Shown piece after piece: positions 56,345-61,270 of a stretch of DNA of 64,000 nt. The notes below the pieces were generated by a model. That model saw only the letters and a list, made by a program, of their open reading frames with translations, was not told where the DNA came from and did not search any database. Position 1 is the stretch's first letter. Every line of letters starts with the position of its first letter. Both the position numbers and the translations under genes were made by a program. This DNA is from a bacterium (GTDB lineage Bacteria; Zhuqueibacterota; Zhuqueibacteria; Residuimicrobiales; Krinioviventaceae): contig OY843751.1 in assembly GCA_963693055.1 (NCBI GenBank), positions 1 to 64,000 of the forward strand. The letters are read 5' to 3'.

Positions 56345-56372
56345 TATCCGGGAGGTGTGAGCCTCCCGGATA
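56345..56372 (-). terminator. Stem-loop, probably the original terminator of the M4 peptidase gene
   Basis: TATCCGGGAGG-TGTGAG-CCTCCCGGATA 11-bp stem, followed on the minus strand by AATTTT. Confidence 0.6.
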
Positions 56373-56449
56373 TTGTATATTACTTAAAGTTTAGTGCATA
56401 TGACCATAGGAATCATTGTTTTAATAAAAACAGAAATAAGGAGATTCTT

Positions 56450-57289
56450 ATGGCAGATGTTAAAAATAATTATGGTTTAAAAAGACTCGAATCCAAGACA
56501 GCTAAAAACGCTATTGTCCAAAAACTGTCTCAGGATTTCAATTTGACTCCTATTATTGCCGAAGCTTACTATCAACAATTTGACCAATACTTTCAGGAAC
56601 ATTCCAACATTTCATTATCAGGAGGTGAAGTCGCTTATGAAGCTGTTGCCGCTGAAGAACCAGCCGGCAAACATATCAGATTAACCCGAAAGCTTACGGT
56701 CCGTCTCAAACTAATTGACTTTAATACAGATCTGCAAGCCCTGGCTAATTATGGCCTTGCCGGACTTAGACGACACCGGATCGCCCGTCTGACTCGACAA
56801 GCCTATGATCAGGGTGCTTTACTCAGCTATGAAGACCTGGCAATGCTTTTAACCACCAGTCCGGCCACTGTTAAACGTGACATTTATCATCTCCGTCATC
56901 ACGGTATGTTTATCATGACACGAGGTATGAAACATGACATGGGTCCCGGACTGTCTCATAAAACCATCATTATTGATCTGTATCTTAAAGGTTATACCTT
57001 TTCAGAAATAGAACAAAAAACCAATCATTCTGAAACCAGCATCAAACGTTACCTCGCTGACTTTATGCAGATCGCCCTTTTATACAAGGAAAATTTCTCT
57101 CCGAACCAGATTCGACTCATTGCAAAGAAATCCGACCGCCTGGTGCGCGAGTATATCCAACTCTACCAAACCTATCTTCAACAAAACAATACGCGATTAA
57201 ACGATCTGTTATCTCCTGCGGAACCTGGTGGCGACGCGAAAAAAAAATCCATTCCTCAACATCTATCAGGAGGCAAAGAAAATGAGTAA
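56450..57289 (+). CDS. DUF1670-like HTH protein, paralog A
   Basis: AYDQGALLSYEDLAMLL, TRG..HD.GPG.SHK, LYLKGY..EI..KTNHS..IKRY; ATG after TAAGGAG. Confidence 0.85.
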   Translation: MADVKNNYGLKRLESKTAKNAIVQKLSQDFNLTPIIAEAYYQQFDQYFQEHSNISLSGGEVAYEAVAAEEPAGKHIRLTRKLTVRLKLIDFNTDLQALANYGLAGLRRHRIARLTRQAYDQGALLSYEDLAMLLTTSPATVKRDIYHLRHHGMFIMTRGMKHDMGPGLSHKTIIIDLYLKGYTFSEIEQKTNHSETSIKRYLADFMQIALLYKENFSPNQIRLIAKKSDRLVREYIQLYQTYLQQNNTRLNDLLSPAEPGGDAKKKSIPQHLSGGKENE

Positions 57290-58106
57290 ACCTTTGACTA
57301 AAGAACAAATTCAACTCAAAAAAATGAGACGACTTAAAGATAAAGATCTCAAGCAGTTACTACTGTACAACTTTTTGAATAGCTATGGCTATGACAAAGG
57401 AGCCATCACTGCCAATGCCATCATTGATGATATCCTTAAAATCATTGATGACTATTTCCTTGTCTCCTCTATTGATGATGACTTGCACCATATTCACTAT
57501 GGGCAACTCGTCTGGATGGCTGTTCCTGTCGATGAATACCCCAAACGCGGAAAAAGTATTGCCGCTACCCGAATGAAACCCGTTGTCCTCTCTTTCATTA
57601 CTGATCAGGATACTTCTCATATCGCGCATGGTTTTGATTCCAAAACTTTAAGGAAAAGACGCCTCAAACGTTGGGTTGATGAAGCTTTTGATCAAGGTGC
57701 TCTGCTTACTCAACTTGACCTGGCTATGTTACTCGGTGTCTGTGATGCCGTTGTCAGTAAATATGTAAATGAAATCCAAAAAGAAGGGCATCTCTTACCA
57801 ACGCGTGGCAACATCCATGATCTTTCCGGCGCTATTACTCATAAACGCGAAATTATCACTCTGTATCTTGAGGGATATCTCACTCCCGAAATCGCTTTGA
57901 AAACCAAACACAGCAACGAAGCGGTTGACAGGTATATCAAAGATTACCATCGTGTTGAATTACTTTGGAAGCATGACATTAAAAACCTTGATCAAATCAG
58001 CCAGCTGGCAAGACTTTCCAAACGTGTCATACAACAATATGTTGATCTTTTGCCTGATAAAATTAAAAATCAAAGGAGTCAGTTGAATCTTTCAAAGAAC
58101 AATTAG
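57282..58106 (+). CDS. DUF1670-like HTH protein, paralog B
   Basis: AFDQGALLTQLDLAMLL, PTRGNIHDL..THK, LYLEGY..EIALKTKHS..VDRY; ATG after AGGAGG, overlapping the paralog A stop. Confidence 0.85.
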   Translation: MSKPLTKEQIQLKKMRRLKDKDLKQLLLYNFLNSYGYDKGAITANAIIDDILKIIDDYFLVSSIDDDLHHIHYGQLVWMAVPVDEYPKRGKSIAATRMKPVVLSFITDQDTSHIAHGFDSKTLRKRRLKRWVDEAFDQGALLTQLDLAMLLGVCDAVVSKYVNEIQKEGHLLPTRGNIHDLSGAITHKREIITLYLEGYLTPEIALKTKHSNEAVDRYIKDYHRVELLWKHDIKNLDQISQLARLSKRVIQQYVDLLPDKIKNQRSQLNLSKNN

Positions 58107-58231
58107 TTGCTTTTATATTTCCCTTTTATTACTTTCAGAATGACAGATCACCAAATTTATTAATGATCTGACGCTCCGTTGTATTTTTAGGGGGTTTTAT
58201 AAATTTCTTTTTCTCCTCTGGTCATATGATA

Positions 58232-61200
58232 CTATTTTAATAATAACATTTTTTGTGTTTCAGTACCCATTGGAGTTGTTAAGCGATAGTAATAAATGCC
58301 GCTTGGTAAATCCTGACCGTTAAATTTGATTTGATGCGATCCCGCGGTATAAAATCCATCTGCCACCGACATGACATTTCTACCCAGAACATTATAAACA
58401 TCCAAACGCACATTCATGTTCTCAGGCAGATCAAAACGTATGGTTGTTTCCGGATTAAAGGGATTGGGATAATTCTGATGCAATGTTAATGCGGTAGGTA
58501 TTTTAATATCATTCTCTTCTACTGCAGTTTCGGGACGAGTACCTCGTGTTACCCATAATGGATAAATTGCACCGGTCAAAAACTGAAAATCATCACCTGC
58601 ACCGGTTATACCATCAGTAAGCAAGCTGGCTACAAATACACCATAATTATTTCCATCGGTATATTCGTAAATTACTGCCGAGTCATCTGAAGAAAAATCA
58701 GGTCTAGAGATCGCGTAACCATTTCTTGTGATCACACCAACATCACCCGTCTCCAGGTTGGCGCCATAAGCGGTAACCTCTCCGTTTGCGTCTACAAAAT
58801 CAAATGCCATAATATAATCATTGTTGGATGCCAGAACGGGATTGCCCAGGTTCACACCAATATCCTGTGGAGGAAAAGCACGGATTACTGTGCCGTCTGC
58901 AATACGTAAAAAGTTGATATCCCAATAATCCAGGGTGTCACCGGTTGCGGTAGCCGCTATATTATATGCATCATAAACCAGATACTGACTGTCAAGGGTC
59001 CAGTCCATTGCATCGGCATACAATACCGTAGAGGATTGTGCGCCTTCGGTATAGGTTTGCGCGTAAAGCGGATACTGGTAAACATTGTCTGTATTGACCA
59101 TGTCAAACAGATAGATCAGGCCATCCGCAACGTTTGAAGTTGCTGCAATATAGTTACCATTGGGTGAGTATGCCAGGTTCCAAAAGGTTCCTGAATCGTC
59201 CAACTGCTGTTCCGCACTGCCATCAATAGCTACGATTCTGGGATTGTAATCATAATCCACAAACAATACAAATTCACCATCGTCTGTTATTGAAGGTTTG
59301 TTCAGCACGGGAGAAGCAGAAATCATTTCAATGGTTTCCGCGTCTAGACTAATGCGATAGAGTGCACGGGTCCCGGAATCTACAGCCAGGATCCAATCAA
59401 TGCCTTGTACCTGAGGTTCAATATCGGGTAATGTAGAGCCTTCACCATCCAAAATCCCTACAGTATCAAACGCATTTTGAACCGCCTGATATTCTGTTGA
59501 ATTTTCTCCATAGAGATCGGAAGCTGATTTTAAAATTGCAATTCTGGCGTCAATGAATTGTGAACTGCGAGTCAGGTAAACTGAAAGTGCACGGTAATAA
59601 ATTTTTTCTGCTTTTTCAATGCCGATATTCAGGGCAACTTGATAAAAAGCCCTGTTGGGTATACCACTGTTCACGTGAACACCACCATTGTCGCCATCTT
59701 CAGTATTGGGGAGATTTTGATATTGATTCATATGTCCTGGCTGTTGGCCTCCGCCTACATTGGGGCCATCCGGTTGGATCATATCGCGAAGTGCGTCATT
59801 GGCAATAGAGGGGGTTGTTACATCTTCGCCCACCAACCAGTCGCCGTTTGCGCCTTCATGGTAAAATTCTGCTGCAACGCCAAAAACATCGGCAAAGGAT
59901 TCATTCAAAGCACCTGACTGTTCTTCATAGATCAGGTTTGCTGTATGTTCAATAACACCGTGGCTCATTTCATGAGCGGTTACATCCAACGCACCGGCAA
60001 GATCGCTGAATTGTTGACTGTCGCCATTGCCAAACACCATAAACTGGCCATTCCAGAAAGCATTGTTGTAATTATTATCAAAGTTGACCACAATGTACAT
60101 GGTGCCGCCTTTACCGTCAATGCTGTTACGGTTGTGGATATTGCGATAATAATCATAAACCACACCGCCATTTGCAATTGCACTGATAGCATTGGGCACG
60201 CTCCATGAATTTGCATTGGTTGATGTGTTGTAATACAGTTGGCTGCCATCTCCGTTTTGAGCGTCAAGCACAACAATACCGCCTTCCACGTTGTCTGGGA
60301 GTTGAGATTGCCCTGCGTTGTACATGGGCTTGGAGGTATCGATCAAATAGTGATCACTACCGATTTGATATGCGCCAAAATTTCGGGTATTACCTTGCAG
60401 ATCCATACCACTTGCGTTTACTGCGCCATCATAACAGATGCGGTTAATTTTCTTTAATACATTTCCAGAATGGGCGTCAATTACAATATCCCAGTTTTCG
60501 GCCAGTGTTGGTTTAACGTTTACAATATAAGTCAGGGGGAATTCGTCCTGCATGGGATAAATTACCAGTCTGCTTTGTACCGGAACAGAGTCAGTATCTT
60601 TTAATCCCAGGTATTGTATTGCCTGGATCTCTGCATTACGAGCAGTAACGGAAGGTTGAATATCAAGAGATTTGGGCAAGGGTGTTGTGCGTCCGTTTAT
60701 ACCTACCAGTTTGTTATCTTTATCAAAATGGTAATAAAGGTCACGACCATATACCGGTACATTTGCAAAAGATTGATGCATACGTACATGGGTCATGCCC
60801 AGCGCGTCGGTTTGTTGTTTGACAAAAACCAGCTTGTCGTCCTGGTTTTCAAGACCCAGCAATCGTTTTGCCCTGGGAGCAAAAGCGTTAAGAGATTGGT
60901 TGATGGTGTTACCTGACATTTCATCAGATAACAGATTTTCCGCTTCGATAAATATGGGACTGCTGCCGTCCTGTGACCATTCAATCTGAATGTTACGGTT
61001 CGGGTCTCTTATGAGTTCAATCAATGCCTGTTTTTGGGCAGCGGGTAATTGATAATTGATTGTGTTTTTTTGACGTTTAGCCGTTTTGGGGGCGTTTCTA
61101 AACTGACTGATTTTTTCGCTGATTGTTTTTAGTTTTGCCTGTTCGATACCGATTGTTTTGTCGTTAGCAACCGGACGGGTGTTTTTTTTATCCGTTAATG

Positions 61201-61270
61201 CATTTGTGGATGAAAATGCCGTCCCTGAGAGAAACGCGCATAAAAGTAATATAGCCGTAACATGTTTCAT
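58232..61270 (-). CDS. M4 (thermolysin-like) metallopeptidase with propeptide, beta-propeller and C-terminal sorting-type domain
   Basis: NNAFWNG, HEMSH, GALNESFAD, DNGGVH.NSG; TolB-like repeats; tail LHQNYPNPFNPETTIRF. Confidence 0.93.
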   Translation of the reverse strand: MKHVTAILLLCAFLSGTAFSSTNALTDKKNTRPVANDKTIGIEQAKLKTISEKISQFRNAPKTAKRQKNTINYQLPAAQKQALIELIRDPNRNIQIEWSQDGSSPIFIEAENLLSDEMSGNTINQSLNAFAPRAKRLLGLENQDDKLVFVKQQTDALGMTHVRMHQSFANVPVYGRDLYYHFDKDNKLVGINGRTTPLPKSLDIQPSVTARNAEIQAIQYLGLKDTDSVPVQSRLVIYPMQDEFPLTYIVNVKPTLAENWDIVIDAHSGNVLKKINRICYDGAVNASGMDLQGNTRNFGAYQIGSDHYLIDTSKPMYNAGQSQLPDNVEGGIVVLDAQNGDGSQLYYNTSTNANSWSVPNAISAIANGGVVYDYYRNIHNRNSIDGKGGTMYIVVNFDNNYNNAFWNGQFMVFGNGDSQQFSDLAGALDVTAHEMSHGVIEHTANLIYEEQSGALNESFADVFGVAAEFYHEGANGDWLVGEDVTTPSIANDALRDMIQPDGPNVGGGQQPGHMNQYQNLPNTEDGDNGGVHVNSGIPNRAFYQVALNIGIEKAEKIYYRALSVYLTRSSQFIDARIAILKSASDLYGENSTEYQAVQNAFDTVGILDGEGSTLPDIEPQVQGIDWILAVDSGTRALYRISLDAETIEMISASPVLNKPSITDDGEFVLFVDYDYNPRIVAIDGSAEQQLDDSGTFWNLAYSPNGNYIAATSNVADGLIYLFDMVNTDNVYQYPLYAQTYTEGAQSSTVLYADAMDWTLDSQYLVYDAYNIAATATGDTLDYWDINFLRIADGTVIRAFPPQDIGVNLGNPVLASNNDYIMAFDFVDANGEVTAYGANLETGDVGVITRNGYAISRPDFSSDDSAVIYEYTDGNNYGVFVASLLTDGITGAGDDFQFLTGAIYPLWVTRGTRPETAVEENDIKIPTALTLHQNYPNPFNPETTIRFDLPENMNVRLDVYNVLGRNVMSVADGFYTAGSHQIKFNGQDLPSGIYYYRLTTPMGTETQKMLLLK

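Follow-up and report, generated by a model that had tools for sequence, protein, structure and literature searches.

An insertion sequence of an undescribed family, encoding two DUF1670 proteins, that inserts into the last codon of genes with secretion tails

The window analysed here, a stretch of 64,000 nucleotides of bacterial DNA, carries a recently mobile insertion sequence of an undescribed family, element A, both genes of which encode proteins of the Pfam family DUF1670 (PF07900). It lies in the last codon of a host gene and rebuilds this codon together with the stop behind it. Element A is an active element of such a family, probably endowed with a new kind of transposase. To our knowledge, the prokaryotic insertion sequences described so far move by DDE, DEDD, HUH, serine, tyrosine or Cas1 enzymes; if the reading favoured below is true, a widespread active family without known profiles adds a catalytic class to this list and gives a DUF its function. 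A preliminary description of the locus, made from the sequence alone, had put it forward as a candidate new type of insertion sequence. That reading stands: the element is multi-copy, its empty sites are polymorphic, and the same ends and paired-gene architecture recur across many phyla. Its account of the ends, the empty site and the base composition has to be corrected, and it missed the target specificity.

Copies, empty sites and ends

The genome, complete in a single contig of 6.5 Mb, contains six copies of element A, which show no difference over the 1832-bp core and have unrelated flanks. In the contigs from three sequencing runs of a single sample, from which the genome assembly may itself derive, these copies collapse into one piece, 56384-58237, at about six times the depth of the flanks. 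Two loose ends from these contigs have no match in the genome, and joints of a circle or of an empty site are absent from them, assembled contigs dropping rare forms. A search of the genome with the PF07900 profile returns 26 matches, which make up 13 pairs: six belong to element A, the others to a second element, B (1884 bp, seven copies; G000:C1:987151-989034 and six further sites), whose repeats differ from those of A. The ORF1s of the two elements are about 42% identical over the aligned part, and B uses the same class of target as A, in the opposite orientation relative to its own genes. Plasmid and phage records hold no match to the element.

In the congeneric genome G085, four of the five loci tested are empty, each with a single AA: the window locus, the site of one B copy, a site (C1:507848-511583) at which B and A are stacked at a single host stop and from which both are absent, and the site of an A copy that lies off target. 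At the fifth locus, the host gene gave no alignment. The proposed search for copies with the same ends and different flanks, and for empty sites, has thus succeeded on both counts, and the possibility of conserved synteny finds no support in G085, where there is no syntenic DUF1670 pair at the window locus. The empty site itself is not the one that had been predicted.

The inverted repeats first reported (15 bp, one mismatch, spanning 1832 bp) are present and are not due to chance, since none of 2000 random 15-mers of this genome has a comparable partner 1.5-2.5 kb away. They had been taken for the termini; in the six copies, the shared sequence runs on beyond them for 11 bases (left) and 7 bases (right), and the flanking dinucleotide is shared as well. 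As a single AA stands at every empty site and an AA on each side of the element when the site is occupied, the element has the limits given in Table 1. The two paralogous ORFs, correctly described as overlapping and as opposite in direction to both neighbours, overlap by 8 bp and match DUF1670 at 199 (ORF1) and 211 bits (ORF2), for a cut-off of 25. Their supposed C/T richness does not set them apart: it is 0.50, against 0.474 +/- 0.027 for 3337 long ORFs, 12-14% of which are as high, and it is 0.42-0.43 in the ORFs of element B. A scan for sigma-70 promoters did no better than chance, giving 10 against 7.0 +/- 2.6 in shuffled sequences.

Table 1. Features of element A and of its insertion site (positions in the window)
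Feature	Position	Strand	Evidence or remark
Element A, the insertion sequence, 1850 bp; six identical copies in the genome	56386..58235	+	Copy alignment, contig depth, empty site
AA dinucleotide at the host-distal junction; second copy, putative 2-bp target duplication	56384..56385	-	G085 empty site has a single AA
Host-proximal AA dinucleotide; positions 1 and 2 of the final (Lys) codon of the host gene	58236..58237	-	
11-bp terminal extension beyond the left repeat, common to all copies	56386..56396	+	
Left inverted repeat (subterminal), CATATGACCATAGGA	56397..56411	+	
ORF1, DUF1670, 279 aa	56450..57289	+	Predicted beta-hairpin, winged HTH and two HTH units
Candidate catalytic residues of ORF1: R158, D163, H170, H193, Y201			
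Nine-A run, candidate slippage site; with one A fewer, ORF1 and ORF2 share a frame	57239..57247	+	
AGGAGG ribosome-binding site of ORF2	57268..57273	+	Sequence
ORF2, DUF1670 paralogue, 274 aa; same motif: R175, H187, H210, Y218	57282..58106	+	
Right inverted repeat	58214..58228	-	
7-bp terminal extension; outer four bases ATAG (minus strand)	58229..58235	-	
Host gene, M4-type metallopeptidase with T9SS type A sorting tail	58232..61270	-	TIGR04183, residues 934-1009, above cut-off
Former end of the host gene, now displaced (G + TAA stop)	56380..56383	-	
Host terminator-like hairpin, separated from its gene by the element	56345..56372	-	Present at the empty site

The target site and the host gene

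The element enters genes with a T9SS tail within their last codon, between its second and third bases (AA|RTAR). Read in the orientation of the host gene, the element starts with ATAG (A) or ATAA (B), so that the last codon and the stop are restored; in the window, the ATAG of the 7-bp extension provides the last base of the Lys codon and a TAG stop (58232-58234), and the old host stop is shifted to the far side of the element. Since the first four bases of the element rebuild codon and stop, the host protein is unchanged. The stop noted earlier 3 bp past the right repeat is indeed at that position, but it is supplied by the element and is not, as had been supposed, of host origin.

Twelve of the 13 copies of A and B lie at the Lys-stop of genes with T9SS-type tails (11 genes), the tails being judged by motif and that of the window's host gene confirmed with TIGR04183. 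The genome has 261 T9SS tails; among its 44,777 AARTRR hexamers, 158 belong to such tails that end in Lys. In relatives, a motif-positive T9SS tail ends at the junction in 58 of the 63 loci at which both ends are visible; in three of the five exceptions, a group II intron lies within the element end. The target varies at every third codon position, and the dinucleotide on the host side tracks the last residue of the host protein (AA for Lys, CG or AG for Arg, CA for Gln, CC for Pro and GA for Glu). The element has an unusual target strategy, in that the conserved tails of some 260 secretion-tagged genes per genome serve it as harmless landing sites.

The off-target copy of A (G000:C1:6088448-6090297) lies in non-coding DNA, where T is still found at -13, -10 and -7. 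In G085, the sequences that match its two flanks are separated by 136 kb, which indicates a rearrangement breakpoint near this copy; the empty site itself is intact. Five solo remnants of B ends were found (G000:C1:1730447, 5975648, 5684749, 3844075 and 333436), four of them directly 3' of the stop of other T9SS-tail genes, and solo host-proximal ends are common in relatives too; the end that supplies the stop seems to outlast the decay of the remaining element. The group II introns of the Poribacteria (Rfam RF00029, 65.6 bits; L084:5267-5343, L096:5264-5340 and L098:5267-5343) sit inside the host-proximal end, between the terminal extension and the repeat. Other subfamilies of DUF1670 pairs (L015, L018, L021, L008, L010 and L011) have different repeats, that of L021 being GCCATATGGCAA, and flanks unlike T9SS tails.

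The gene pair in related elements

Both ends are visible in 63 of the best 80 of 123 related GTDB loci, and most of the others lack flank, which leaves little to the idea that such pairs might occur without repeats. These 80 loci are labelled KSB1, Calditrichota, Ignavibacteria, Bacteroidetes, Marinimicrobia, Cloacimonadota, Poribacteria and Gemmatimonadota, among others, and the distribution is patchy (33 of 167 genomes of the element's own phylum; 19 of 301, 21 of 251 and 14 of 86 in three other groups). A gene pair is present in 70 of the 73 related loci with room for one. The end-to-end span of the 63 loci is 1299-2015 bp, none exceeding the upper value apart from intron insertions. Of the internal ORFs of at least 100 aa, 125 out of 190 are DUF1670-like, and 51 distinct others have no Pfam match; no extra gene, and hence no separate transposase of the kind that had been envisaged, was found between the ends at these 63 loci. 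A metagenome scan with the 16-base end pattern gave 121 stretches, nine of them with DUF1670; the others were dropped as likely chance matches.

Within the genome, the ends of A occur solely at the six A copies, and those of B at the seven B copies and the five remnants, so that the genome holds no larger helper with such ends. Judging from dN/dS values of 0.076 and 0.09 (B against its 93% variant), both genes of element B are under purifying selection. At eight loci there is at most 80 nt of non-coding DNA inside each repeat, with full-length members down to 57+24 and 51+60 nt, and a guide RNA would therefore not be needed. The preliminary description had left the choice between a pair that mobilises itself and a non-autonomous derivative; the lack of a helper with shared ends and the selection on the B genes favour an autonomous pair. 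Short, internally deleted derivatives that keep both ends, MITE-like or decayed, occur at L308 (362 bp), L400, L411 and L468; short derivatives with both ends measure 362, 824, 949 and 1227 bp.

The two ORFs may be expressed both apart and together. A run of at least six A near the end of ORF1 is present in 65 of 73 pairs, and the frame of ORF2 is open from this run in 64 of the 65 loci that have it. Five close natural fusions (529-559 aa; three distinct types) join exactly at the A run, and more distant fusions also exist; the fusion records could stem from homopolymer sequencing errors. In an excerpt of PMC5009743, nine-A runs are described as causing transcriptional slippage and A_AAA_AAG as causing -1 frameshifting. 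ORF2 also carries a ribosome-binding site of its own, and it is plausible that the proteins are made separately as well as fused. From these sequences we infer that the two proteins act as one unit, either as a heterodimer or as a fusion that slippage at the A9 run would produce. Most of the Poribacteria elements (L079-L110) have ORF2 in the -1 frame behind a run of the A_AAA_AAG type, and most elements from elsewhere have A9 and the +1 frame, two routes to the same fusion.

The DUF1670 proteins

The AlphaFold2 models of ORF1 and ORF2 (pLDDT 85 and 78; pTM 0.66 and 0.46) comprise, besides a pair of helices at the N terminus and a beta-hairpin, a winged HTH and two more HTH units; these units are of the ordinary HTH and winged-HTH kinds, and the predicted secondary structure is nearly all helical. 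As had been stated, no transposase or recombinase is recognised: profile searches with ORF1 and ORF2 give no catalytic family of either kind at E<=1, and neither do the profiles of 126 homologues among the matches listed (25 of 81 families). Among these matches, the one link to serine recombinases is the resolvase HTH (PF02796, in 14 of the 126 members), found without a resolvase catalytic domain. A PDB sequence search with ORF1 gave no match at E<=10 and the corresponding profile 10 weak ones (E 0.08-0.6); Foldseek against the PDB gave none at E<=0.001 with either model, and a fold search of BFVD a single one (7.8e-4, TM 0.15). In the VIA-align structure search the best matches are generic HTHs, with Z scores of 6.6 (rmsd 1.8, 56 residues aligned) and 6.1 (rmsd 1.5, 47 aligned), and the matches listed comprise HTH and winged-HTH units and no recombinase or nuclease catalytic domain. 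These structure searches probe the N-terminal third poorly, and the absence of fold matches to predicted models does not make the fold new. The best hits in the ESM Atlas (0.81), archaeal HTH clusters, offer a lead.

Two assignments to known enzymes were considered and rejected. Topoisomerase VI-A turns up in the structure search (Z 5.6 and 5.1) among many other winged helices, but the Spo11 motif includes a conserved Tyr and the helix that matches has none, so that a Spo11-like role was not retained. Membership of a divergent branch of the tyrosine recombinases was dismissed after hhalign comparisons with six tyrosine recombinase domains gave probabilities of 0.2-0.4% (0.24% and 0.41%) and left box II unaligned.

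A small set of polar residues is nearly invariant. Over 83 representatives, taken at 50% clustering, R158 is retained in 83 of 83, H170 in 80 of 83, H193 in 78 of 82, Y201 in 81 of 83 and D163 in 67 of 83. In 24 proteins made up of several units, the later or full units keep D163, G165, H170, H193 and Y201 in 31 cases out of 31, the position of R158 being Arg in 24, Lys in 3 and another residue in 4. The 21 divergent N-terminal units score lower but stay alignable; in these, His193 is kept in 0 of 18 aligned (a hydrophobic residue stands instead), Tyr201 in 3 of 17, Asp163 in 2 of 20 and His170 in 2 of 19. Because Asp, His, His and Tyr are kept in the later units and lost jointly in the N-terminal ones, they are a candidate active site, and since the fold tolerates the loss of His193, a chemical role can be argued for it. 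Binding of DNA or of a metal alone could also account for the conservation of these polar residues; the position of Tyr201 is one at which HTH recognition helices often carry an aromatic residue. Multi-unit DUF1670 proteins of a second lineage (P0244, P0251, P0254 and P0259, 930-952 aa; P0287, P0300 and others, about 520 aa) show an alternation of intact and degenerate units.

A proposed mechanism and its alternatives

The two DUF1670 proteins are, in our judgement, likely to be the element's own transposase. Since the only two genes of the element encode uncharacterised HTH proteins, the mover is likely to be a DNA-cutting enzyme of an undescribed kind. The HTH units of the two subunits would bind the repeats of the element and the target, the latter being read directly as DNA (T at -13, -10 and -7, then NN|RTAR), presumably with no guide RNA. 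A cut with a 2-nt stagger would be made in the last codon and the element joined, after which gap repair by the host would duplicate the dinucleotide. The conserved Arg-Asp-His-His-Tyr set may cut and join the DNA. The least certain part is that Asp163, His170 and His193 might hold a metal ion and that Tyr201 might be a nucleophile forming a transient phosphotyrosine bond; this chemistry is a guess. We lean towards seeing in DUF1670 a new class of HTH-module transposases, in which two paralogous subunits would use an Asp-His-His-Tyr site of their own, read a degenerate coding motif and insert into the final codon with the protein unaltered.

The flanking dinucleotide bears on a rather different use of the same pair, as a conservative recombinase: a circle excised with its own core dinucleotide would recombine with a matching target core, so that one of the two AAs belongs to the element and nothing is duplicated, following the logic of IS110/IS1111 or of serine or tyrosine recombinases. 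This reading, possible though doubtful, is a variant of the idea that the pair is the transposase and is compatible with it. Among 106 unique junction pairs, drawn from 482 loci which are kin and so do not count as independent events, 101 are concordant (97 AA/AA, 2 AG/AG and 2 CG/CG) and 5 discordant (AA/TG, CA/AA, AA/AT, CG/AG and a fifth that looks like a 1-base insertion). The discordant pairs suit a carried core in that the host side always yields a sensible host codon; two of them are in decayed copies and one has just 5 bases of flank, but the AA/TG pair belongs to an intact element and is not accounted for by plain duplication. Further points in favour are the asymmetric subterminal repeats, as in IS1111 (according to an excerpt of PMC11187229, which adds that apparent duplications often arise from misplaced ends), the mimicry of the right half of the target by the first bases of the element, the two copies in G126, with CG at all four ends seen, the frequent A instead of T at the last base of the element in lineages with a distal dinucleotide other than AA, and an H-x22-H-x7-Y spacing in the sequence that recalls box II of tyrosine recombinases. 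Against these stand the four concordant pairs other than AA/AA, which favour a 2-bp duplication and one of which belongs to the AG/AG element L039, nearly identical to its AA/AA sister element L037. The same element end also occurs after CA and CC in one genome and after AG and CG in another, so that the core is not a fixed one; copies do exchange flanks, which can produce discordant pairs; and the hhalign comparisons speak against a tyrosine recombinase domain. No protein position convincingly tracks the three non-AA lineages, in a tree from which 7 of 42 rows without both intact ORFs were left out. On balance, duplication seems to us the more likely account of the dinucleotide.

Three explanations deny the pair the part of transposase or give it a different guide. 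The DUF1670 proteins might be DNA-binding adaptors that target the element and recruit a host enzyme (a topoisomerase, Xer or a repair nuclease) or the transposase of another insertion sequence. Helper candidates are many: the genome holds at least ten other multi-copy families, of 2-10 copies each and with transposase-like ORFs, which we take to be of the IS5, IS256, IS4, IS3, IS481 and IS1182 types, as well as seven tyrosine recombinase matches, and its DDE-type elements or these recombinases could act in trans. Every modelled part resembles DNA-binding units, and the short derivatives show that ends can persist without intact genes. We nevertheless consider action in trans unlikely, since no other element of the genome bears A or B ends, since the same ends and target are found across many phyla with this pair only, and since the joint loss of Asp, His, His and Tyr in units that can still be aligned is the pattern of inactivated enzyme domains. 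That a small RNA from a non-coding end, carried by the HTH proteins, pairs with the target as in IS110/IS1111 is highly improbable. The strict choice of target, the subterminal repeats and the hairpins that A and B carry in their 3' non-coding part would fit it, but the non-coding parts of full-length members are as short as stated above, an Rfam search found no match at E<=1, and variation of the target at third codon positions suits read-out by a protein better than base pairing. That the element is a non-autonomous remnant, derived from a larger one with a known transposase, is just as hard to uphold and is largely refuted: DUF1670 proteins of about 520 and 940 aa do attest to larger versions, but they consist only of further DUF1670/HTH units, none of the 63 spans is longer than the limit given above, and the B genes are under selection.

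Comparison with known systems

A full-text literature search, with subscription journals, bioRxiv supplements and ISfinder outside its scope, found no paper that names DUF1670 or PF07900; a descriptive search gave nothing on the element among the matches listed, and neither name occurs in three supplements of PMC13343696. The closest parallel in layout is the IS1111 group of the IS110 superfamily, which, in an excerpt of PMC11187229, is likewise described as having asymmetric subterminal repeats, a fixed orientation at a specific target and a short shared core; its terminal extensions are of 7 and 3 bp, against 11 and 7 in the element. In contrast to IS110/IS1111, the element has no match to the DEDD/Tnp profiles and two HTH-type genes, and its non-coding part, at some loci 80 nt or less per side, can be too short for a guide RNA of the IS110 type. 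IS630/Tc1-mariner elements duplicate TA, unlike the element, in which the dinucleotide is AA, AG, CG or CA, within a coding motif of about 20 bp. They resemble it in their inverted repeats, the dinucleotide on both sides and two frames that can be joined by slippage or frameshifting (excerpt of PMC5009743), and differ from it in that the element matches no DDE-domain profile and its second frame is a paralogue of the first instead of a catalytic domain.

Tandem paralogous subunits are found in RIT elements, in TnpA/TnpB of Tn554 and in XerC/XerD. The catalytic residues of tyrosine recombinases are given as RKHRH plus Tyr in an excerpt of PMC8138268, and the near-invariant Arg, His, His and Tyr of the DUF1670 proteins come in the same order with a spacing like that of box II, a resemblance and not a membership. 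The element differs from these recombinases in having no PF00589 match and in that its motif lies, in the model, on an HTH like that of sigma region 4. The Y1 (HUH) transposases of IS200/IS605 are small enzymes with a His/His/acidic metal site and a Tyr nucleophile, which insert beside a short target. Unlike these and the Y2 enzymes of IS91, the DUF1670 proteins have no HUH motif and no Y1_Tnp match, and, unlike IS200/IS605, the element has inverted repeats rather than end hairpins and gains an extra dinucleotide upon insertion. From IS607 and the serine recombinases it is set apart by the absence of a resolvase catalytic-domain profile. If the proposed reading is true, the pair offers a compact new chemistry for site-specific insertion of DNA. 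Both proteins belong to Pfam DUF1670 (PF07900), a family with no assigned function that is here tied to mobility.
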